The notes beneath the pieces are model-generated. The model searched no databases, was not told where the DNA came from, and worked only from the letters and a program-made list of their open reading frames with translations. From Dehalococcoidia bacterium (GTDB lineage Bacteria > Chloroflexota > Dehalococcoidia > Lucifugimonadales > UBA3495), in NCBI GenBank assembly GCA_965205495.1, contig CBDBHA010000002.1, positions 1,782,326 to 1,846,325 on the forward strand: 64,000 bases of DNA. The letters are read 5' to 3'. Position 1 is the stretch's first letter, and the number at the start of each line of letters is the position of its first letter. Of the stretch, positions 41,626 through 64,000 are shown piece after piece. The translations under genes and the position numbers were made by a program.

Positions 41626-42506
41626 GAGCTTGTGTTCAAAGTGTCGAAATCTGGCGAGCTGAAGTAGGAACGCCAAATTTCCCGATTTGATAAGTTGGAG
41701 GCATGAATAGGGAATCATATCCAAGCGACCTTACCGATGCCCAATGGGAGGAACTAGCCCCTTTGATTCCGCCAGCCAGGCGAGGAGGCCATCCCCGCAC
41801 CGTCAACATGCGCGAGGTCATAAACGGCATATTGTACGTGCTGCGTAGTGGCTGCACTTGGCGCATGATGCCCCATGATCTGCCTCCTTGGAGTACCCCG
41901 TGGGGATACTTTCGCCGGTGGAGAAAAGACGGCACTTGGGAAGGTATCCATGATACTTTGCGTCCCAAAGTGCGGGAGTTGGAAGGGAGAGAGCCGACGC
42001 CCTCAGCAGCCATCATCGACAGCCAGAGTGTGAAGACCACCGAAAAAGGGGGCCTCGTGGCTATGACGCTGGTAAGAAGGTGAAGGGCCGCAAGCGTCAC
42101 ATTGTGGTTGACACCATGGGGTTGCTGCTGGCCGTGGTGGTGCATCCGGCGGACATTCAAGACCGGGACGGGGCTAAGCTGGTGTTGAGCAAGCTTCTGG
42201 GACGATTCCCCAGGCTCCACTTGATTTGGGCTGATGGCGCCTATGCCGGACAATTGGTGAATTGGGCTTTCGCCTTGGGAGGCTGGCTGGTTGAGGTGGT
42301 CAGGCGTGCCAAGAACAGCCACAGCTTTGAGGTGTTGCCTCGTCGGTGGGTTGTAGAGCGCACCCTTGGCTGGCTGGGCCGAAACAGGAGACTCAGCAAA
42401 GACTACGAGGAACTGCCGGAAACTTCTGAGGCTTGGGTTTATATAGCTATGATTCATCTCATGCTCAAAAGGCTCGCCCGCTTGATTCTACTTTAAACAC
42501 AGGCTC
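41626..42506 (+). mobile_element. IS5-family insertion sequence (881 bp; IS1031/IS427-like subgroup from memory), apparently intact
   Basis: Inverted repeats GAGCTTGTGTTCAAAGT and ACTTTAAACACAGGCTC (15/17). Perfect 3-bp direct repeat TAA at 41623-25 and 42507-09. Two-frame transposase. Confidence 0.9.
41703..42496 (+). CDS. IS5-family DDE transposase, orfA (41703-42083) plus orfB in the -1 frame
   Basis: orfA is [18 protein letters not shown] (DUF4096-type). Reading ..TEKGG then [24 protein letters not shown] across the A5G5 run at 42043-52 gives the usual fused DDE protein. Confidence 0.85.
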
Positions 42507-55221: not shown

Positions 55222-58200
55222 TTACCGCCGCAGCCAGACCTCGGTTAACCATTGCGTGGGCGAACGACGCCTTCCCGGCAAACTTTCGAAAGTGGACCTT
55301 CTGGCGATCCGGGGATGGCGGTAGAGCTTGCCCTGGCCATTCGCGCGTAGGATGTTGTGGTCCCGGACTTTTACGAAATCGTAGAGCCTCAGGAAACCTT
55401 CAACCCGATGCTCCGGATACGGCTGCTGGTCATCGTTTAACATTCCGTTTAGATAGAGGGTGAAATTTTCGACGGTGAGGTAGCCGTGGGTAATTTCGGC
55501 CATTTCTAGGGCCAGCGCCCGATAAGGGACTGACGCCCGCCGGTCCGTTCTATATCGTATCTTTTGCTGCCCAAAATAAGTTGCGATTCCGATTGAACCT
55601 ACCAGTCCGACACCCGTTGCTACAAACCAAAAGGGCATCCACAAATGGGGCCAATAGTCGCCGGAGTCGAGGTGCCCGTCATCGTCGGTGTCGGGGGTAG
55701 TTGGGTCGGTATAAACGGTGTACGCGAGCCCCAGCAAAGACACCGTGAACCCCCCAACCTCTTCGCCATCAGTTTTGTCGTCGCCATCGCTGTCAACGTT
55801 TAACGGGTCGGTCCCCCAGGCCCGTTCGGCGCCATCCCGCAAGGAATCGCCATCGGTATCGGGCAGGTCGGGACGGGTTGGCCGGCGTTGGGCGGGGTCC
55901 CCGCCGCTAACCCGATTTACTTCTTCGCCGTCGTTGACTCCGTCGCCGTCGGTGTCGGCCATGCAAGGGTTGGCGGCTACCGGCTCATTGGCTCCCACGT
56001 CCAAACGGCCAAGGTACTCGTCACCATCCGTTAAGTTGTCCCCATCGGTGTCCGCGGCGGTGGGGTCGGTGCATCCGAGCTGCAACTCCAGAGCATCGGA
56101 GAGGCCATCTTGGTCGGTGTCGCTGCTGGTGCAACTCATCTTCCTGTCGTATTCCTGCGAATCACCGATGCTATCCTGGTCGGTGTCGCTTCGCTGCGGA
56201 TGACAGCCGTAGTCCACCTCCAGATTGTCGGCCAACCCATCATCGTCGGTATCCGTGCGGGTGGGGTCGGTCGGAACGGTTTCTCCGGATGGTTGGAAGA
56301 CCATGCCGTAAACTTCCTGCCCGTCGGACAGACCGTCCTGGTCGGTATCGGGATTCTTGGGGTCGGTTTTTACGAGGAGCGCCTGTCCGTTGATGAGCAA
56401 CGAATGCCCCTCGAACTCGTGACTGTCCCCAAGGCCATCACCGTCGGTGTCGTCAGATAAAGGATTCAACCCGTGGGTTAAGATCTCTTCACCGTCGGTC
56501 AGGCCATCCCCATCCGTGTCTCGGTTTATGGGGTGGGTGTTATGGGTAATCTCTTCGCCATCCGAAAGGCCGTCCCCATCGGTGTCCGGGTTGGTGGGGT
56601 CCGGGTTGACCACCACATCGGTGCCGCCGTAGGAGAGCGTGTAACCCTGGACCTCCTCGCTGTCGGACAGCCCGTCGCCGTCGGTGTCGAGGGCTTTGGG
56701 ATCGGTGGAATACTTGTTGACTTCCGCGCCATCGGTGAGCTTGTCGCCGTCGGAATCGGGACTGTTGGGGTTGGTGCCATGGGTTTCAAGTTCTTCCCAA
56801 TCGTTGAGGCCGTCGTCGTCAGTGTCGGCTTGGGTGGGATTGGTCCGGTGCTGTTCCAGTTCCTCCCGGTCGGGAAGTTGGTCTCCATCGGTGTCGATAT
56901 TTTTGGGGTCAGTCCCATGAATATGGACTTCATCTCCGTCGGAAAGACCATCGCCATCGGTGTCACTCAATTCGGGGTCGGTAAGGTAAGTGTTAACCTC
57001 GGCGCCGTCGAGGAGGCCGTCGCCGTCGGTATCCCCGCTGGTGGGGTTGGCGCCTGCGGCGATTTCCTGCCCATCACTTAACCCATCGCCGTCAGAGTCA
57101 AAATTCACCGGGTCGGTGCCGTGGATATGGACCTCGTCGCCGTCTTTGAGGCCGTCCTTGTCGGTGTCCGGCAAAAGGGGGTCCGTTGGGCCATTGACCT
57201 CATCCCGGTCCGATAGCTTGTCTCCGTCGGTATCCGCCTTTCTGGGGTCAGTCTTGTAGTTGATGACTTCGGCATAGTCCGACAGGGCGTCGTTGTCGGT
57301 GTCTTTCAATATGGGGTTGGTCTTCCAGGTCTTGACCTCGGCCCCGTCCAGCAAGCCATCCCCGTCGGTGTCCTGCTTGTGGGGGTCGGAGCCCTTGCTG
57401 ATTTCATCACCGTCCTTCAGTCCGTCCCGGTCGGTATCAGGTCTTACCGGGTCGGTCCCGTAACGGTTTACCTCGTCCCCATCATTCAGGCCATCGCGGT
57501 CAGTGTCGGGGTCGGTAGCGTTGGTAACGCCCCGCAGTTCATCGGGGTCGGACAGCCCATCCCTATCGGTATCTCCGCGTATCGGGCTGGTGCCGTGTTG
57601 ATTGACCTCCGCCGCGTCGGACAAGCCATCGCCATCGGTGTCCGATTTGCGGGGATCGGAGCCATGAGTTTTGGCCTCCCTGCCGTCGGAGAGGCCGTCA
57701 TCGTCGGAGTCCGAGTCCAGGGGGTCGGTCCGGTATTGTTTGATTTCTTCGCCGTCGGAGAGGCCGTCGCCGTCGGTGTCGCGGTTGGTTGGATCGGTGC
57801 CGTGGCGGTTGACTTCGTTCCCATCGGAAAGGCCGTCGCCGTCGGTGTCTTCCCGAAGGGGGTTGGACCCGTGCTTGTTGACTTCGTTCCCATCGGAAAG
57901 GCCGTCGCCGTCGCTGTCTTCCCGAAGGGGGTTGGACCGGTGTTTGTTGACCTCGTTCCCATCGGAGAGGCCATCGCCGTCGCTGTCCGGCTCAAGAGGA
58001 TTGGTCCCCAGGTTGACTTCCGCGCCATCGGAAAGCCCATCGTTATCAGTGTCCGAGTCCAGTGGGTCGGTGCGATGGGTGGATACCTCGTCACCGTCCC
58101 CCAGGCCGTCGCCGTCGGTGTCGGCCCGGACGGGATTAGTATGGTAATCATTTACCTCGGCGCCATCGGACAGGCCGTCGCCGTCGGTGTCGCGGTTGTT

Positions 58201-58395
58201 CGGGTCGGTGCCACGGGCCGATTCGGCCTCGTCGGAAAGCCCGTCGCCGTCGCTGTCCACCGGGGACTCTTGAAGGGGAAGGGCGGCGATCAGGGTGAAC
58301 GACAGCAAGCCAATGGCAACCAGGGCTGCCAGGCGGCCCAGGAACGCTGCCCTTTGGGGGAGAGAATCTCTCAACTGGTCCACGATTGTAACCAA
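55222..58395 (-). CDS. single-pass membrane protein with 36 thrombospondin type-3 (DxDxDGxxDxxE) Ca-binding repeats and a ~116-aa cytoplasmic C-terminal domain
   Basis: 1057 aa. TTG start abuts the upstream stop. Signal anchor LAALVAIGLLSFTLIAAL. I counted 36 D(T/S)D.D..-initiated units, mostly 22-23 aa. TM helix MPFWFVATGVGLVGSIGIATYF, followed by a basic tail. Confidence 0.85.
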   Translation of the reverse strand: MVTIVDQLRDSLPQRAAFLGRLAALVAIGLLSFTLIAALPLQESPVDSDGDGLSDEAESARGTDPNNRDTDGDGLSDGAEVNDYHTNPVRADTDGDGLGDGDEVSTHRTDPLDSDTDNDGLSDGAEVNLGTNPLEPDSDGDGLSDGNEVNKHRSNPLREDSDGDGLSDGNEVNKHGSNPLREDTDGDGLSDGNEVNRHGTDPTNRDTDGDGLSDGEEIKQYRTDPLDSDSDDDGLSDGREAKTHGSDPRKSDTDGDGLSDAAEVNQHGTSPIRGDTDRDGLSDPDELRGVTNATDPDTDRDGLNDGDEVNRYGTDPVRPDTDRDGLKDGDEISKGSDPHKQDTDGDGLLDGAEVKTWKTNPILKDTDNDALSDYAEVINYKTDPRKADTDGDKLSDRDEVNGPTDPLLPDTDKDGLKDGDEVHIHGTDPVNFDSDGDGLSDGQEIAAGANPTSGDTDGDGLLDGAEVNTYLTDPELSDTDGDGLSDGDEVHIHGTDPKNIDTDGDQLPDREELEQHRTNPTQADTDDDGLNDWEELETHGTNPNSPDSDGDKLTDGAEVNKYSTDPKALDTDGDGLSDSEEVQGYTLSYGGTDVVVNPDPTNPDTDGDGLSDGEEITHNTHPINRDTDGDGLTDGEEILTHGLNPLSDDTDGDGLGDSHEFEGHSLLINGQALLVKTDPKNPDTDQDGLSDGQEVYGMVFQPSGETVPTDPTRTDTDDDGLADNLEVDYGCHPQRSDTDQDSIGDSQEYDRKMSCTSSDTDQDGLSDALELQLGCTDPTAADTDGDNLTDGDEYLGRLDVGANEPVAANPCMADTDGDGVNDGEEVNRVSGGDPAQRRPTRPDLPDTDGDSLRDGAERAWGTDPLNVDSDGDDKTDGEEVGGFTVSLLGLAYTVYTDPTTPDTDDDGHLDSGDYWPHLWMPFWFVATGVGLVGSIGIATYFGQQKIRYRTDRRASVPYRALALEMAEITHGYLTVENFTLYLNGMLNDDQQPYPEHRVEGFLRLYDFVKVRDHNILRANGQGKLYRHPRIARRSTFESLPGRRRSPTQWLTEVWLRR

Positions 58396-58767
58396 CTATC
58401 GCCGGGGCAACCGTGGGAAGTACTGCCGGTAAACGGCCGCCAGGATGCCGTCGGTTACCTGCTGGGCGGCCCGCTGCTGGGGAGCAGTTTGCGCCTGCTG
58501 CAATACTTCACCGGCAACGTCTAGGAGGCCCAGGGGGAGCCTTCGGGCCACGGCGTCGTTGATCTCCCGGTTGCAAAGTTCCCTGGCGGCCTGGACTTGG
58601 CGCACGTAATCGGGGGTGGATCCGAGGGAAGTCCCCAACTGCTCGTTGAGTTCCTGGAGGGCGGCGAGGAGCAAATGCAAAACGGTGGCCGGGGTTCCCT
58701 CCAGGGCCCTTTTCAGGGCCGCGGTCTTCAGTCCCTCCCTTTCCAGGGACTCAACAAGTTGACCCAT
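58396..58767 (-). CDS. small helical cytoplasmic protein of unknown function, or the -1-frame continuation of the upstream gene's tail
   Basis: 123 aa. The ATG at 58767 overlaps the upstream ORF by 40 nt, and the stop abuts the next gene's start. Confidence 0.45.
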   Translation of the reverse strand: MGQLVESLEREGLKTAALKRALEGTPATVLHLLLAALQELNEQLGTSLGSTPDYVRQVQAARELCNREINDAVARRLPLGLLDVAGEVLQQAQTAPQQRAAQQVTDGILAAVYRQYFPRLPRR

Positions 58768-60299
58768 GGCAACCCGCCGTTCGCTGTGGGGCCAGCCAAA
58801 CCTTCGAGGGTTTGCACGGCGGAAAGGACTACCTGTTCCCGGTCTAAAAGCGCCGACATATCCCCATTAACGCTGGGAGGGTTGGCAAGGACCGCTTCAA
58901 GGAAGGATAGCTCGCGCAATTCTTGCGCCTGCTGACCGAGAATGGCGGACAAGTTCCGCAGTTCGGTTGCTTTGGTTTCCTTGCGGCGCTGCATGGCCCG
59001 CTGCGCTGACGGGTCGGGCGGCTGCTCTTGGAGACCCCCGCGTTTGGACCGCAACCAAATGAAAAGCGTCACCAGAGCCGCAACAATAGAGAAGGCGATA
59101 ACCCCCACCACGGCCCAAAGCACCCATTTCCATGGTCCATCGAGACCGAAAAACCCGAAGAGACCTTGTTTCTCCGGTTCGGTTGTCACACCTGGGCCGG
59201 GGGTTGTCACAAGTTCTTGCTGATTGGCTGGGGGGATTTTCGTCTCAGTATAGCCAGCCACAAGGATTGCCTCAGTATCGGTGAGTTTGGGCGAGTTAGG
59301 TTTCGGGGTTTCGGCAATTTCTGGAGTCTCTGGGGCTGGGGTTGCCTGGGGGACGGTTTCGCTGGTCCCAGCGGTGGGGTCGCTGGTCGGACCAGGAGTT
59401 TCAACGTTGTGGTCATCGGTGAAACCATCACCGTCGGTGTCACCCTTCTTCGGATGGGTTCCGTAAAGGTTAACCTCATCGCCATCCGAGAGGGTGTCAC
59501 CGTCCGTGTCCTTTTTCAAAGGGTAGGTAAAGTATTTTTTTACCTCATCGCCGTCCGAGAGGCCGTCCTCATCGGTATCTGCGAGATTTGGATCGGTCTT
59601 GTAAGTTTCCACCTCATCCCAATCGGTGAGGCCGTCGCCATCCGAATCCTTTTGGTTTGGGTTGGTTCCATGAAACATCTCGAGGTTGTCGGCAAGCCTG
59701 TCGCCATCGGTGTCCTTGTTGTTGGGATTGGTCCCGTGTTCGTTCACCTCATCCCCGTCGGAGAGGCCGTCATTGTCGGAATCGGCCTTGAGTGGATCGG
59801 TTTGGTGGGTGTTCACCTCAGCGCCGTCAAGGAGGCCATCGCCGTCGGTATCTGCCCATAGTGGTTTAGAGTTATTTTCGGCTATTTCAACGTAGTCGGT
59901 TAGCCCGTCGGCATCGCTATCCGGGTCAAGCGGGTTCGTTTTGTACCTCTGTAGCTCCTGACCGTCGGGTAGGCCGTCCTTATCGGTGTCCTCTTCCAAT
60001 GGATTAGTCCGGTGGGTGTTCACCTCTTCCCCATCGGTAAGACCGTCCTTGTCGGTATCGCGGCTTTTAGGATCGGTCTCGTAGGTGCACAACTCGTCCC
60101 AGTCGGTGAGTCCGTCACCGTCAGAATCCGCTTTTCCAGGAGAGGCATCACAAACCTCTTGGAGGTTGTCGGTGAGGCCGTCCTTATCGGTGTCTTGTTG
60201 GGGAGCCTGGATCGGGACGGCGGCCACCAGGGTAAGCGCCAACAGGAGCGCCACGCTGGTTAAACCGAGTCCCCGGAAAATGTTTGAGAAAAGGTTCAT
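58728..60299 (-). CDS. single-pass membrane protein with 12 thrombospondin type-3 repeats, a Pro/Thr/Glu linker and a ~107-aa helical cytoplasmic tail
   Basis: 523 aa from the ATG at 60299 (GGAG 8 nt upstream). Signal peptide MNLFSNIFRGLGLTSVALLLALTLVAAV, 12 DxDxDG units and TM helix VLWAVVGVIAFSIVAALVTLFIWL. The longer ORF-track start overlaps the upstream gene. Confidence 0.8.
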   Translation of the reverse strand: MNLFSNIFRGLGLTSVALLLALTLVAAVPIQAPQQDTDKDGLTDNLQEVCDASPGKADSDGDGLTDWDELCTYETDPKSRDTDKDGLTDGEEVNTHRTNPLEEDTDKDGLPDGQELQRYKTNPLDPDSDADGLTDYVEIAENNSKPLWADTDGDGLLDGAEVNTHQTDPLKADSDNDGLSDGDEVNEHGTNPNNKDTDGDRLADNLEMFHGTNPNQKDSDGDGLTDWDEVETYKTDPNLADTDEDGLSDGDEVKKYFTYPLKKDTDGDTLSDGDEVNLYGTHPKKGDTDGDGFTDDHNVETPGPTSDPTAGTSETVPQATPAPETPEIAETPKPNSPKLTDTEAILVAGYTETKIPPANQQELVTTPGPGVTTEPEKQGLFGFFGLDGPWKWVLWAVVGVIAFSIVAALVTLFIWLRSKRGGLQEQPPDPSAQRAMQRRKETKATELRNLSAILGQQAQELRELSFLEAVLANPPSVNGDMSALLDREQVVLSAVQTLEGLAGPTANGGLPWVNLLSPWKGRD

Positions 60300-61689
60300 G
60301 GGGATAACTCCGGTGAGTGGTCTCATTCGCGGGCGGAAAGCTAGGGTTGGGGGAAGGCGTCGATGCCCGCCATGTGCTCCAGGCCCCGGTTCAGGACCAA
60401 CTGCTCGGGAATCCGGCGGATGGCGTCGGCCAACGATTCGCCGTTCTGGGGGGCCCAATCCGGGTCCTGAAGCGCCAACCTGAGCCCGTCCTCCAGTTCC
60501 GGGAATTCGGGGCCGCAGAGCAACACGGTTAAACGGACGTCGGTCATTTGGGGAAAGCCGGCCATGAAAAAGCGGGCGAACCGCGACCTGTTGTTGGTTT
60601 CCGGCCCAGCCTCCGGGGCGCAGACCTCCCGGAGGAAGTCTTGGAAGCGGAGCAAGGCCAGGTTGTCGGGAATCATCCTTTCCAACGCCCAAGCGGGACC
60701 GGACAGCAGGGCCAAAATATTGCGGGAGGTGTAAGGGTCGCAATTGATGGTGGTGGCTTCGAACGCTTTGTCCAGCATATCCATGATGTCGGGAAGGCGG
60801 TTGGAATCCTTGGCGGCCACCAGGTTGGCCCGCATATTCTTGATGCGTTGGGGCGCGTTGGAAAGGGGAAATATTGAAAAGCCGGCGGCGATGAATTGGT
60901 GGGAAGCATCTCCGAGGGGCGCAACGGTAAGGCGGACGTTGGCCGGGTCCAGTTGAGTCCCGAAGGGGGCAAAGTGATAGGCAGCCTGGGCCGATAGGAA
61001 CACGGGCATGAGCACATCTTGCAAGTGCCGGTTAACTTCGGTTACCAGGTCTCGATGCCCCTGCTGGAGCAAAAGAAGGTTGTCGGCCAGGATTATGCCG
61101 TTGATGGCCGAGGTGGTGGCCAGGTAGTAAAGGGAAGTCAGCAGATTGCCCAACATGCGGGGGTCTCCGCGACCGGCGCCCTGGTCCCGCTCGGGGATGA
61201 TACAAACGCTGAAAGTTGCCACCGGCGCCGGTTCCATCACCTGCTGCATCCAGTCCACCACCACCGGCACCGACCCCGAACCGGTGCCGCCTCCCAGCCC
61301 GCTAAAGGTGGTCAAGTAACCGTTGTACACCCGGCTCAATACATTGGCCTCGTTAAGATGGCCAAGGTTGGCTTCCCGAGCGTCGGCGTTCGAGCGGAAA
61401 TTGTATAAGGCGGAGGCTCGGCCATTGAGGGTAAATCCGCCGGCCCCTCCAGTCCTTTCCACGCTGTACCCCTGCCCGGCCTGGCCCTCCTCATCCCCCG
61501 GCGCTGAAGGCAGGCCCAGGAGTTCGGGGATGTCTTCAGGCGGCGGCGGGGCGAAGGCGATTTGGACCCTGGGGTCGTGCCAACCGAAGAAATTGTCCAT
61601 TCTTTCCGGCAGGTCGGCCTGGGTGTCCATGGCGATGGCGCGGACCGGAAAGGTTCCCGGAAGAACCGCGGAAACAAAGTCGGGTTTCA

Positions 61690-62560
61690 GAACCTGTTTA
61701 CAATCTCTTCAGGATTAGCGCCGCGAAGGCAAGCACGACCATTTGCAGGCTGGTATCGAGCTTTCTTTCGCAGTTCTTCCAGAGTCGGCGGCACTTTTCC
61801 AGCCAGGCGAAAGACCGCTCCACCACCCATCGCTTCGGCAGTACTACGAAGGTGTGCATCTCATTGCGTTTCACCACCTCCACCGACGCTCCCAGCAGGC
61901 TCTGCACCCCAGCGGCAAAGGGCTCCCCAGTGTAACCCCCGTCCACCAGCACGTTCTGCACCAAGCTGAGGCCGTCCCGGTGCTGGTCAAACATCGCCAA
62001 AGCCCCAGCCCGGTCGGTGACGTTCGCCGTGGTCACGTGGATCGCATGGGGCAACCCCTGAGTATCCACCGCGATGTGGCGCTTGATTCCAGACACCTTC
62101 TTCCCCGCGTCATAGCCCTTCTGCTCGGCGCTGTCCGTGTTCTTGACGCTCTGGGAGTCCACGATGCAGAAGCTGCTCTGCTCTTTCCGACCATTGCTTC
62201 TCCGGGCCGCGCCAACCAATTTTTTTTAAGACTTGCTCCAGAATGGACTCTTGCTCTGGGTCAGGCCGCTCGCTCCATTGCTGGAAATACTGGTAGCAGG
62301 TGCCCCAATTGGGGAAGTCCGCAGGGAGCATCCGCCACTGGCACCCGCTTTTCAAAAGATAGAGCACCCCGCAGAAAACGTCGTACAAGTCCACGGTGCG
62401 GGGCTTGGTCCGGCGGCGGGCCGACTCCAAATCCGGCAGAATCCGGGTAAATTGCTCCCGGCTGATGTCGCTGGGATAGGAATGAGACATGATTGCCCCT
62501 CCCTCCGGTAATCGTCTCAACTTATCATATTTTAGAGATTGCAAACAGGTTCTTAGGCGG
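61690..62560 (-). mobile_element. IS5-family insertion sequence (871 bp), a different element from the one at 41626
   Basis: Inverted repeats GAACCTGTTTACAATCTCT and AGAGATTGCAAACAGGTTC (18/19). The flanks TCA and TTA (T-N-A) are imperfect. It lies inside the tubulin-like gene. Confidence 0.88.
61698..62490 (-). CDS. IS5-family DDE transposase in two frames (orfA from 62490; orfB in the +1 frame after an A8 run at 62227-62220)
   Basis: MSHSYPSDISREQFTRILP.. (DUF4096-type), then ..[38 protein letters not shown].. and a DDE core. orfA is also open upstream into the host gene. Confidence 0.85.
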
Positions 62561-62798
62561 AACACGCCAGCCAGCTTGCTGCCCGCCTCGCCACAGCCCA
62601 CCAAGCAAATGGAATGGAGTTCTTTTGAACGGATTTCCTGGTTAAAATAGTCCAGGACCGAGTCTCGGATGTCGAGGTTTTGCTGGGACTCGTTAACCTG
62701 TACCACTTACCACCTCGTCAGTCGTCTGGGGACCCCCAAGCAACGTTGGGCGACCCGCGGAAACCCTGGAAGACCGCAACCTGTGTGATATTGACGTA

Positions 62799-62827
62799 AT
62801 AATATTTTACACGATAAGATTAGTCAA
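62799..62827 (-). promoter_or_regulatory. near-consensus sigma70 promoter of the tubulin-like / TSP3 operon
   Basis: Minus strand TTGACT (62827-22), 17 nt, TATTAT (62804-799), in an A/T-rich divergent intergenic region about 90 nt upstream of the GTG at 62706. Confidence 0.6.
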
Positions 62828-62931
62828 CCTTGGGACCCTAGACGTTTCCTTTGGCCCGTAGCAATGGGTTAAGAATTGCTAAACATTGACTTGACCGTCG
62901 CGGGTGATTCCGGATTCCGGTAGAGGCCCGA

Positions 62932-64000
62932 TTGATAGAAATCTTCTTACAGGCAATTCATCCGCTGGTATTCGTCGTTTTGTTTTCGGCGGGGGTATGC
63001 GCGGCGGCGGCCGTTGGGGCGTTGGTGCTGCAACGTATTGCCGAGCAATTGGAAGGTCCCGGTCCCGCCTACACCCTGCCCGGTTGGGTGAAGTTCTTCT
63101 TGCCGCTTTTGGTGACCGCAACCGCGGCCTGCGGTTTGTTCTGGCTGCGCCCCATCTGGCAGGAACCCTTGGAATTCTGGGTCAATGTCACTTTTTGGCT
63201 ATTGCTTTGTGCCGGGTTGTTCCTTTCTCTGTCAGTGGCGGCGGGCGTCACTTATTGGAAAGACCACTGGAGACCTGGGAAGGTGGTGGCCGGTGGAATA
63301 CTTGGCATATTTTTGTTGGGAGTCATGTTAACGGAGGCCGTCGACGACAGGCCGGTTTCCGGCAACCCCCAACCGTTTGACCAGGCCGGCAGCAGGGTTG
63401 TTCTTGCCAAGGGGGTGGAGATAGAGGTCAAGCCTTGGCGGGAAGCGGTTAAGGTGGGAGAGATAGTCCCCCTGGGCGTGACCGTCAGGAACAGTTCGGG
63501 TGTTAACATCTCCGACCTGACCATTCAACCGGTCCAGGTATCCGAGTCCGTGATTGTAGATTGGCAGTCCCGCTCCCTCGGCAACCTTCAAGACACAGCC
63601 ACTTGGGGCCCCGAGCTTTTTGAGGCGCAATTGCTGAAACCGGGCGACCAGGAGGTTGAGTTCCGGTTGAGTTACATCGATGCGCCTACGCAGAGGCCCA
63701 GGCAAGTATCTCAGCGGTGGACCGGGACGGTTGGTGGTCCCAGTTTGGAGGTCCAACGTTACATTTACAGCGGGCCGGTCGTAACCAGCGGGCAAATCAT
63801 CGACGTCAGACTGTTAATCCGGAACGTGGGAGCAGGGCCGGTCTACCGGCTGCAAATGGAACCCAATCTAATGGAATTCTTCCAATCCTCCACAACATTG
63901 CGTTGGCCCGATATCCTTGAACCTGGCGAAGAGTTTCACGCCTCTTACACCGCAAGAGCGGACCGCGCGGGTGAGGGTCCCTTGGAGGACCCCAACGCCG
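62932..64000 (+). CDS. partial (3'-open) membrane protein: about 4 N-terminal TM helices followed by repeated CARDB/DUF11-like beta-sandwich modules
   Basis: Hand-translated frame with no stop from 62908 to the window end. The first start candidate is TTG 62932. Modules GEIVPLGVTVRNSSGVNISDLTI and GQIIDVRLLIRNVGAGPVYRLQM. Not in the ORF track because it is open-ended. Confidence 0.6.
   Translation, partial: MIEIFLQAIHPLVFVVLFSAGVCAAAAVGALVLQRIAEQLEGPGPAYTLPGWVKFFLPLLVTATAACGLFWLRPIWQEPLEFWVNVTFWLLLCAGLFLSLSVAAGVTYWKDHWRPGKVVAGGILGIFLLGVMLTEAVDDRPVSGNPQPFDQAGSRVVLAKGVEIEVKPWREAVKVGEIVPLGVTVRNSSGVNISDLTIQPVQVSESVIVDWQSRSLGNLQDTATWGPELFEAQLLKPGDQEVEFRLSYIDAPTQRPRQVSQRWTGTVGGPSLEVQRYIYSGPVVTSGQIIDVRLLIRNVGAGPVYRLQMEPNLMEFFQSSTTLRWPDILEPGEEFHASYTARADRAGEGPLEDPNA

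Follow-up and report, generated by a model that had tools for sequence, protein, structure and literature searches.

How does a gene for a tubulin-like protein come to share an open reading frame (ORF) with a transposase, and does this arrangement serve either of them? The question is raised by a locus in a 64,000-nucleotide (nt) stretch of a Dehalococcoidia contig (CBDBHA010000002.1; hereafter, the window), where a tubulin/FtsZ-like gene is divided into a 5′ and a 3′ fragment by an insertion sequence (IS) of the IS5 family, and where the transposase of this element is in turn divided between two frames, orfA and orfB, which meet at a run of eight adenines (A8). An earlier sequence-only reading had described the locus as a clean, probably recent and in-frame insertion, which placed the transposase under the promoter and ribosome-binding site of the host gene. 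We consider it very probable that an ordinary IS5 insertion has split the tubulin-like gene, that the fusion ORF arose by accident and that the A8 run is a conserved recoding site, likely acting through slippage. Coordinates of all features are collected in Table 1.

An insertion sequence splits a tubulin-like gene

The insertion is real and persistent and is not an assembly chimera, because an IS-free allele exists, four other long-read assemblies carry the insertion and three short-read assemblies break inside the IS. Removal of the IS together with either of its flanking triplets leaves a 1500-nt ORF (..GVFRL-KPDFVSAV..), as the sequence-only reading had predicted, and the product is identical to the protein of 499 amino acids (aa) encoded by the IS-free allele (locus L097, on a 1.44-Mb contig with 20.9x coverage; member P0194 of the closest protein cluster). 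L097 and the rejoined gene differ by eight synonymous nucleotides and by no amino acid, and the empty site in L097 reads CGC CTG AAA, with a single TGA. A database search with the rejoined protein retrieved uninterrupted 499-aa homologues at 97, 89 and 88% identity, with which the host 5′ fragment aligns as well. The proposal of a clean simple insertion is thus upheld by the IS-free allele, and the two fragments, which might have turned out to be naturally separate genes, form one gene in relatives.

The junctions, too, recur in independent assemblies. The same insertion, with an IS of 863 bp at the same position, is present in four long-read assemblies from other samples (L091, L092, L093 and L098), which are 99.8–99.95% identical to the window. 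The three short-read assemblies (L094–L096) contain contigs that begin within the IS, about 50 nt short of its right terminus. IS-bearing and IS-free strains were found together in one sample, ERZ26167216. The suggested recency holds in a relative sense only: the allele is common to strains from at least five samples, separated by 3–8 substitutions over 3.6–6.7 kb.

Other parts of the initial description need to be amended. Its start of the element (61690) stands, while its end (62560) lies 8 nt beyond the element, in host DNA. Nor can the insertion be called in-frame as far as the host gene is concerned: the 863 + 3 = 866 nt added are not a multiple of three, so that the gene itself is not read through. 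It is the host 5′ fragment alone that shares its phase with orfA. A duplication-free alternative, in which an element with the ends AGAACC...GGTTCT entered a 4-bp T-N-N-A site, is ruled out by the empty site, since it would leave one base too many when the flanks are joined. In our reading, the 863-bp element transposed into the single T-G-A site at codon 51 of the 499-codon gene, duplicating a 3-bp target; the last three nucleotides of the host 5′ fragment are the left flank triplet. Because the nucleotide-binding loop at the N terminus is cut off from the remaining protein by the IS, the host gene has very probably been inactivated, to judge from its domain layout. The longest internal ORF of the 3′ fragment begins at M71 (61630).

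The element belongs to a large IS5 lineage of Dehalococcoidia

Assignment to the IS5 family, already made from the sequence alone, is confirmed by Pfam and NCBIfam matches and by the inverted repeats. orfA matches DUF4096 (E-value = 1.2e-20) and orfB matches DDE_Tnp_1 (E-value = 1.3e-29). When the two are joined by dropping one A of A8, the fused protein scores 248.5 bits against NCBIfam NF033580 ‘IS5 family transposase’ (cut-off 110), covering positions 1–257 of the 258 in the profile, a match that implicitly takes in the catalytic D, D and E residues. The terminal repeats of 19 nt carry one mismatch and follow the pattern GAACCTGTTT[A/G]CAATCTCT; adding the adjacent A/T extends them to 20-nt arms that are 95% complementary. 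This pattern occurs twice in the window, compared with 0.02 matches expected by chance, and the repeats are conserved across 69 related copies.

These copies come from a scan of GTDB genomes, from which the best 80 of 560 loci were kept, giving 70 full-length copies including that of the window. More than 60 copies in Dehalococcoidia metagenome-assembled genomes (MAGs) are 86–96% identical to the window IS over its full length, and almost all hosts of related copies are Dehalococcoidia MAGs. The family is mobile, as identical or near-identical copies with different flanks are found inside single genomes. At the protein level, a search with the conceptually fused 263-aa transposase retrieved over 100 single-ORF homologues of 263 aa, at up to 95% identity, and IS5-family transposases of Wolbachia at 70–72%.

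No further copy of the 863-bp IS was found in the window or in the first related loci, where the search returned only an IS5-like element that is 40–45% identical (about 41.6–42.5 kb of the window). This second IS5-family element (~41626–42506, + strand, ~881 bp, the 40–45% referring to its protein) has inverted repeats GAGC[T/C]TGTGTT[C/T]AAAGT and TAA/TAA flanks. Its orfA (41703–42083) and orfB (42080–42496) show the conventional −1 arrangement near GAAAAAGGGGG.

The IS1031 and IS427 subgroups of IS5 comprise elements of 0.8–1 kb with DUF4096 and DDE_Tnp_1 domains and a 3-bp T-N-A target duplication. Their transposase is often encoded in two frames, and classical members are described with −1 frameshift motifs. 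The element of the window resembles them in size, domains, T-N-A duplication and split frame, but differs in that its layout is +1 and not −1; the second IS5-family element of the window, with its −1 layout, is of this kind. Its closest named relative is ISWpi1, an IS5-family element of Wolbachia; both transposases have 263 aa (with the 70–72% identity given above), and the short terminal inverted repeats have a single mismatch in both. ISWpi1 is reported to target T(T/A)A (PMC3004938, describing Cordaux 2008), and the present elements likewise target T-N-A with a strong preference for T(T/A)A, N being A or T in 62 of the 69 left flanks. On the other hand, the repeats of ISWpi1 are reported to be 23 bp long (PMC3004938), compared with 19–20 nt in the 863-bp element described here; the hosts are Wolbachia in one case and Chloroflexota in the other; and most copies of the present IS are split by the A8 run. 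Inter-copy or end-to-end gene conversion has been discussed for ISWpi1 (PMC3004938).

Five Dehalococcoidia MAG loci (L040, L051, L063, L068 and L072) contain head-to-tail IS-TNA-IS junctions, with only the 3-bp triplet between the copies. The IS termini (GA...TC) rebuild the target consensus YC-TWA-GR at these junctions, so that each resident copy provides a good target in its own flank.

The A8 run is a likely site of transcriptional slippage

orfB was correctly noted to lie in the +1 frame after the A8 run, for which a homopolymer length error and transcriptional slippage had been named as possible causes. It continues the family profile immediately after the run. orfA and orfB are joined when one A is lost or two are gained in the mRNA, and a +1 ribosomal slip would be equivalent. 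Among the 70 related copies, 49 have A8 (from about 15 genomes), 18 have A7 and three have another state. Removing one A yields an intact 263/266-aa protein in 45 of the 49 A8 copies. A neighbour-joining tree places A8 in deep clades, with A7 appearing several times independently. We also compared ten diverged A8 copies (45 pairs): for orfB, the ratio of nonsynonymous to synonymous substitution rates (dN/dS) is 0.08–0.28 in 44 pairs and 0.43 in the least diverged one, with dS reaching 0.49. Because A8 is the prevalent and deep-branching state, leaves the element intact and coexists with purifying selection on orfB, the A8/+1 layout is best read as a conserved recoding site of a known kind and not as an error or decay.

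Comparable sites have been described. IS elements with conserved runs of nine or eight As fuse orfA and orfB by transcriptional slippage (Baranov 2005, PMC1088944). Clusters of DDE_Tnp_1 transposases include both +1 and −1 poly-A shifts, for which transcriptional realignment has been argued, and one ‘+1’ cluster has 108 members, 80% of them with poly-A/T (Antonov 2013, PMC3711429). The present element likewise has a run of at least eight As at the orfA/orfB overlap, and +1 and in-frame or −1 layouts likewise occur within one family. It differs from the published systems in that the alternative state among its relatives is the fused A7 form, not −1, and in that the system is known here from sequence. 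By analogy, RNA polymerase slipping on A8 would lose one A or gain two (programmed transcriptional realignment), and the full-length 263-aa transposase would most likely be made at a low level from slipped mRNAs. Slippage is the most likely mechanism of the frame change; it is favoured by the conservation of A8 and by the selection on orfB.

Several other explanations of the run deserve consideration. A8 might be a homopolymer sequencing error or a private inactivation of an A7 element, in which case the transposase would be a single ORF or a dead pseudogene. This idea draws on the four closest DNA copies (L007–L010), which have A7 and a single 263-aa ORF, and on the many database homologues that are single ORFs of this length; a private frameshift was indeed first suggested by the A7 of the closest copies, and was ruled out by the majority and deep-branching position of A8. 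Both versions appear highly improbable: three independent assemblies of the same insertion (L091, L092 and L093, with coverage of up to 18x) reproduce A8, A7 and A8 copies within single assemblies argue against a systematic error, and, apart from the run, A8 copies are intact and evolve under purifying selection. The frame could also be changed by the ribosome, Lys-tRNA slipping +1 on A_AAA_AAA_A. The run does permit perfect re-pairing in the +1 frame, and the resulting VLKK-LVGAAR product would match that of an A7 copy exactly. Against this, the A site is occupied by neither a slow codon nor a stop (ATT or ATC comes next), and the sole Shine-Dalgarno-like motif, GGAG, precedes the shift codon by about 12 nt, a spacing that, as known from prfB and dnaX, favours −1 and not +1 shifts. 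In addition, the published view of poly-A sites in mixed-direction DDE_Tnp_1 transposases is transcriptional realignment (PMC3711429), and we rate a ribosomal slip as unlikely. A DNA-level switch, whereby replication slippage flips the element between A7 (on) and A8 (off) and A8 copies are mobilised in trans by A7 ones, seems comparably unlikely. A7 has arisen repeatedly inside A8 clades, and both forms coexist in some genomes; yet several genomes, within the best 80 of 560 loci, show only A8 copies, identical or nearly so and at different sites, and purifying selection on orfB is sustained in A8-only clades. Transcriptional slippage thus accounts best for the A8 layout. Among assemblies of the insertion itself, L098 (ERZ25071132, only 3x coverage) has an interrupted run (AAAAACAA) at the equivalent of 62222, which should abolish slippage there.

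The fusion ORF is most likely accidental

As proposed, the host frame runs without a stop through the left repeat into orfA, forming an ORF of 198 aa. A 3.47-Mb contig in the databases encodes exactly this 198-aa sequence, and other contigs encode close variants of it. The host promoter and ribosome-binding site invoked in the sequence-only reading also have a counterpart, in that the host start is preceded by a putative sigma-70-like promoter and by a Shine-Dalgarno sequence. A 42-nt block around the promoter-like site, between two divergent genes, is invariant in five related loci, some of which have only about 89% protein identity, and so is the Shine-Dalgarno sequence GAGGTGG. Host transcription probably enters the IS, although to call the promoter strong, as the sequence-only reading did, goes beyond what the consensus match and its conservation show.

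The idea that the fusion is a functional design, in contrast, finds no support. The upstream frame in phase with the orfA ATG contains a stop in 58 of the 70 related full-length copies. It is opened in the window copy by a 1-nt indel in the leader: an alignment shows that the window copy and its closest relative L007 have one extra leader base (CCGGAGGG compared with CC-AAGGG), which puts the ATG in phase with the only stop-free leader frame. Because the frame is generally stopped and was opened here by this indel, the fusion ORF is most likely accidental. We envisage that the 1-nt insertion in the 5′ leader of an IS sub-lineage would have set the ATG in the stop-free frame, and that the element then happened to land in matching orientation and phase. 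Given an open leader frame, the chance of a fusion is about one in six (orientation and phase).

One may still ask whether the fusion is meaningful, with the host promoter and ribosome-binding site driving the transposase through a 72-residue N-terminal extension and raising its activity. The fusion ORF is real and was called as a gene in several assemblies, the promoter-like block and the Shine-Dalgarno sequence ahead of the host start are conserved, and no terminator-like site was found between 61600 and 63000. We nevertheless regard this as quite improbable. The open leader frame is the minority state (12 of 70 copies), and the fusion ORF terminates at the orfA stop unless recoding occurs, so that its un-recoded product lacks the DDE domain. 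The extension would directly adjoin the N-terminal DNA-binding-type domain. Moreover, orfA has a strong-looking ribosome-binding site of its own, GGAGGGAGGGG, just upstream of its ATG; read-through transcription would thus act without any fusion. Finally, the element has stayed at its site in the strains from at least five samples, and the window contains no second copy.

The interpretation of the locus as an ordinary insertion with an accidental fusion and a slippage site also has points that weigh against it. Slippage on just eight As may be inefficient, and A7 copies in some of the same genomes could supply transposase in trans. The loss of host function is deduced from the domain layout alone. 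Lastly, the flanking triplets are unequal, which a fresh simple insertion does not predict.

Unequal flanks and a variable base at one end of the element

The difference between the flanking triplets (TCA and TTA on the forward strand), pointed out in the sequence-only reading, is genuine. Read in the sense of the host gene, the right flank is invariably TGA, in the window as in the seven other assemblies that extend across this junction. The left flank has three states: TAA (window, L091), TTA (L092, L093) and TCA (L098). Thus, the central base of the left flank, at 62554, is A, T or C depending on the assembly, and the corresponding base is G in the right flank and in the empty site. Since these three states occur in near-identical sequences, one position must have changed at least three times, while its surroundings have hardly changed. 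The window and L091 differ at three positions over 6.6 kb, all of them within 62042–62655; two lie inside the IS and one lies 100 nt outside, in the host 5′ fragment. This pattern fits a faster turnover of the IS region, e.g. by gene conversion from other copies.

The phenomenon extends beyond the locus. All 69 related copies have T-N-A flanks, and the two triplets are identical in 51 of them. In 17 of the 18 copies with unequal triplets, the difference is at the central base only, and the outer T and A are conserved at 275 of 276 positions. Of the 42 copies that share at least 99.5% identity with another one, eight already show a mismatch. An ORF spanning the junction is restored in 10 of 16 mismatched copies, compared with 27.5% for random joins (p = 0.004, by a crude test in GC-rich DNA), and this happens at least as often as in matched copies. 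Restoration above the level of random joins suggests that most mismatched copies are not products of IS–IS recombination and resemble simple insertions in this respect.

For the window, IS–IS recombination is ruled out as the cause of the unequal flanks, because these rejoin into one gene. Carry-over of donor flanks fails as the sole explanation, since the left flank of one and the same insertion shows three different bases. That the element entered this site several times independently is unlikely, considering that the target is suboptimal relative to YC-TWA-GR and that the IS is identical in L091, L092 and L093. A literature search for unequal T-N-A duplications in IS1031/IS427 yielded nothing relevant. 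It is possible, though doubtful, that 62554 is a true mutational hot spot created by the end of the IS. The most economical idea would be that other IS ends serve as templates for gene conversion or break repair, with re-annealing on the shared T and A. Candidate templates are other copies, flanked mostly by TAA or TTA, and the element’s own right end, which in reverse reads TCA. Carry-over of donor flank bases, as in piggyBac, could add to the family-wide signal.

Table 1. Features of the interrupted tubulin-like gene and of its insertion sequence (window positions)
Feature	Position	Strand	Remarks
IS5-family insertion sequence	61690..62552	-	863 bp; inverted repeats, Pfam and NCBIfam matches
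Left terminal inverted repeat GAACCTGTTTGCAATCTCT	62534..62552	-	transposase-proximal end
Right terminal inverted repeat GAACCTGTTTACAATCTCT, read inward	61690..61708	+	one mismatch to left repeat; holds orfB stop
Left flank triplet	62553..62555	-	TAA in gene sense (TTA on +); deviant copy of the target duplication
Right flank triplet	61687..61689	-	TGA in gene sense (TCA on +); original target sequence
orfA, 126 aa	62110..62490	-	ATG at 62490; DUF4096, N-terminal DNA-binding-type domain
A8 run (T8 on +), putative recoding site	62220..62227	-	exactly at the orfA/orfB frame change
orfB, DDE_Tnp_1 catalytic domain	61698..62219	-	+1 relative to orfA; stop TAA at 61698–61700, inside the right repeat
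Fusion ORF, 198 aa	62110..62706	-	51 host residues + 21 leader-encoded (RTCLQSLKYDKLRRLPEGGAI) + 126-aa OrfA
Tubulin/FtsZ-like gene, 5′ fragment	62553..62706	-	GTG at 62706; codons 1–51; GCGEAGSK nucleotide-binding loop
Tubulin/FtsZ-like gene, 3′ fragment	60341..61689	-	codons 51/52–499; GGGTGSG signature
Promoter-like site TTGACT-17 nt-TATTAT	62799..62827	-	upstream of tubulin-like gene; 10 of 12 consensus positions

The host protein and its neighbourhood

The label ‘tubulin-like’, given to the host gene from its sequence, is borne out by the GGGTGSG signature and by a predicted fold that matches tubulin, TubZ and BtubA. The protein scores 20.7 bits against Pfam Tubulin, below the cut-off of 33, although some of its homologues carry precomputed PF00091 matches; an NCBIfam search of the host protein gave no match. 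The signature is invariant across 36 homologues, and a GxGxxG N-terminal loop is present as well. A profile of the 36 homologues, searched against the sequences of the Protein Data Bank (PDB), retrieved CetZ1 and FtsZ chains, the best being CetZ1 4b46 (E-value = 4e-7). An AlphaFold2 model was built from an alignment, with the 97% identical protein P0001 as the target (pLDDT 82.8, pTM 0.85). A Foldseek search of the PDB with this predicted model retrieved tubulin, TubZ, BtubA and the Asgard AtubA (E-value ~1e-15, probability 1.00, TM-scores 0.53–0.66). The protein thus resembles the superfamily of tubulin, BtubA/B, TubZ, CetZ and FtsZ in signature and predicted fold, but differs in a sequence that falls below the Pfam threshold and is only 12–16% identical to solved structures. 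On the strength of the model, its assignment as a distant member of the tubulin/FtsZ superfamily appears justified. The family is rare, with 44 clusters in a database of 5.8 billion protein sequences.

The tubulin-like gene is surrounded by a conserved gene cluster (55222–62706 on the − strand and 62904–64000 on the + strand), which is also found in L001–L006 and L097. Downstream of it are two large proteins with bacterial TSP3 repeats, and the gene on its upstream side, transcribed divergently, encodes about 650 aa without a Pfam match. One TSP3-repeat gene (55222–58395, − strand) has internal repeats at 57600–57990 that are about 82% identical, with a 69-nt offset. Compared with the IS-free L097, the window is 94% identical downstream of the tubulin-like gene and 99.7% identical upstream of it. 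The elongation factor EF-G encoded in the window is 78–83% identical to EF-G of Chloroflexota, Dehalococcoidia and SAR202 MAGs.

Implications

Genes interrupted by an IS, ORFs fused by chance and transposases of the IS5 type that rely on poly-A recoding are familiar phenomena; by itself, the finding is of little weight and its practical value is in annotation. Both host fragments should be annotated as one disrupted gene and orfA/orfB as one recoded transposase rather than as pseudogenes, and the insertion has produced the 198-aa ‘protein’ as an artefact. That natural knock-out strains exist suggests that the tubulin/FtsZ-like gene is dispensable in that environment. The one real oddity of the case is the flank base, whose rate of variation far exceeds that of its surroundings and which may be of interest to specialists. 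If true, such a hot spot would suggest that a process so far undescribed acts at the ends of IS5 elements that target T-N-A, candidates being a transposase-made break repaired on another IS end, or a piggyBac-like carry-over of donor flanks. A large and active IS5 lineage in Dehalococcoidia MAGs, with interconversion between split (A8) and fused (A7) forms of the transposase, could likewise interest specialists.

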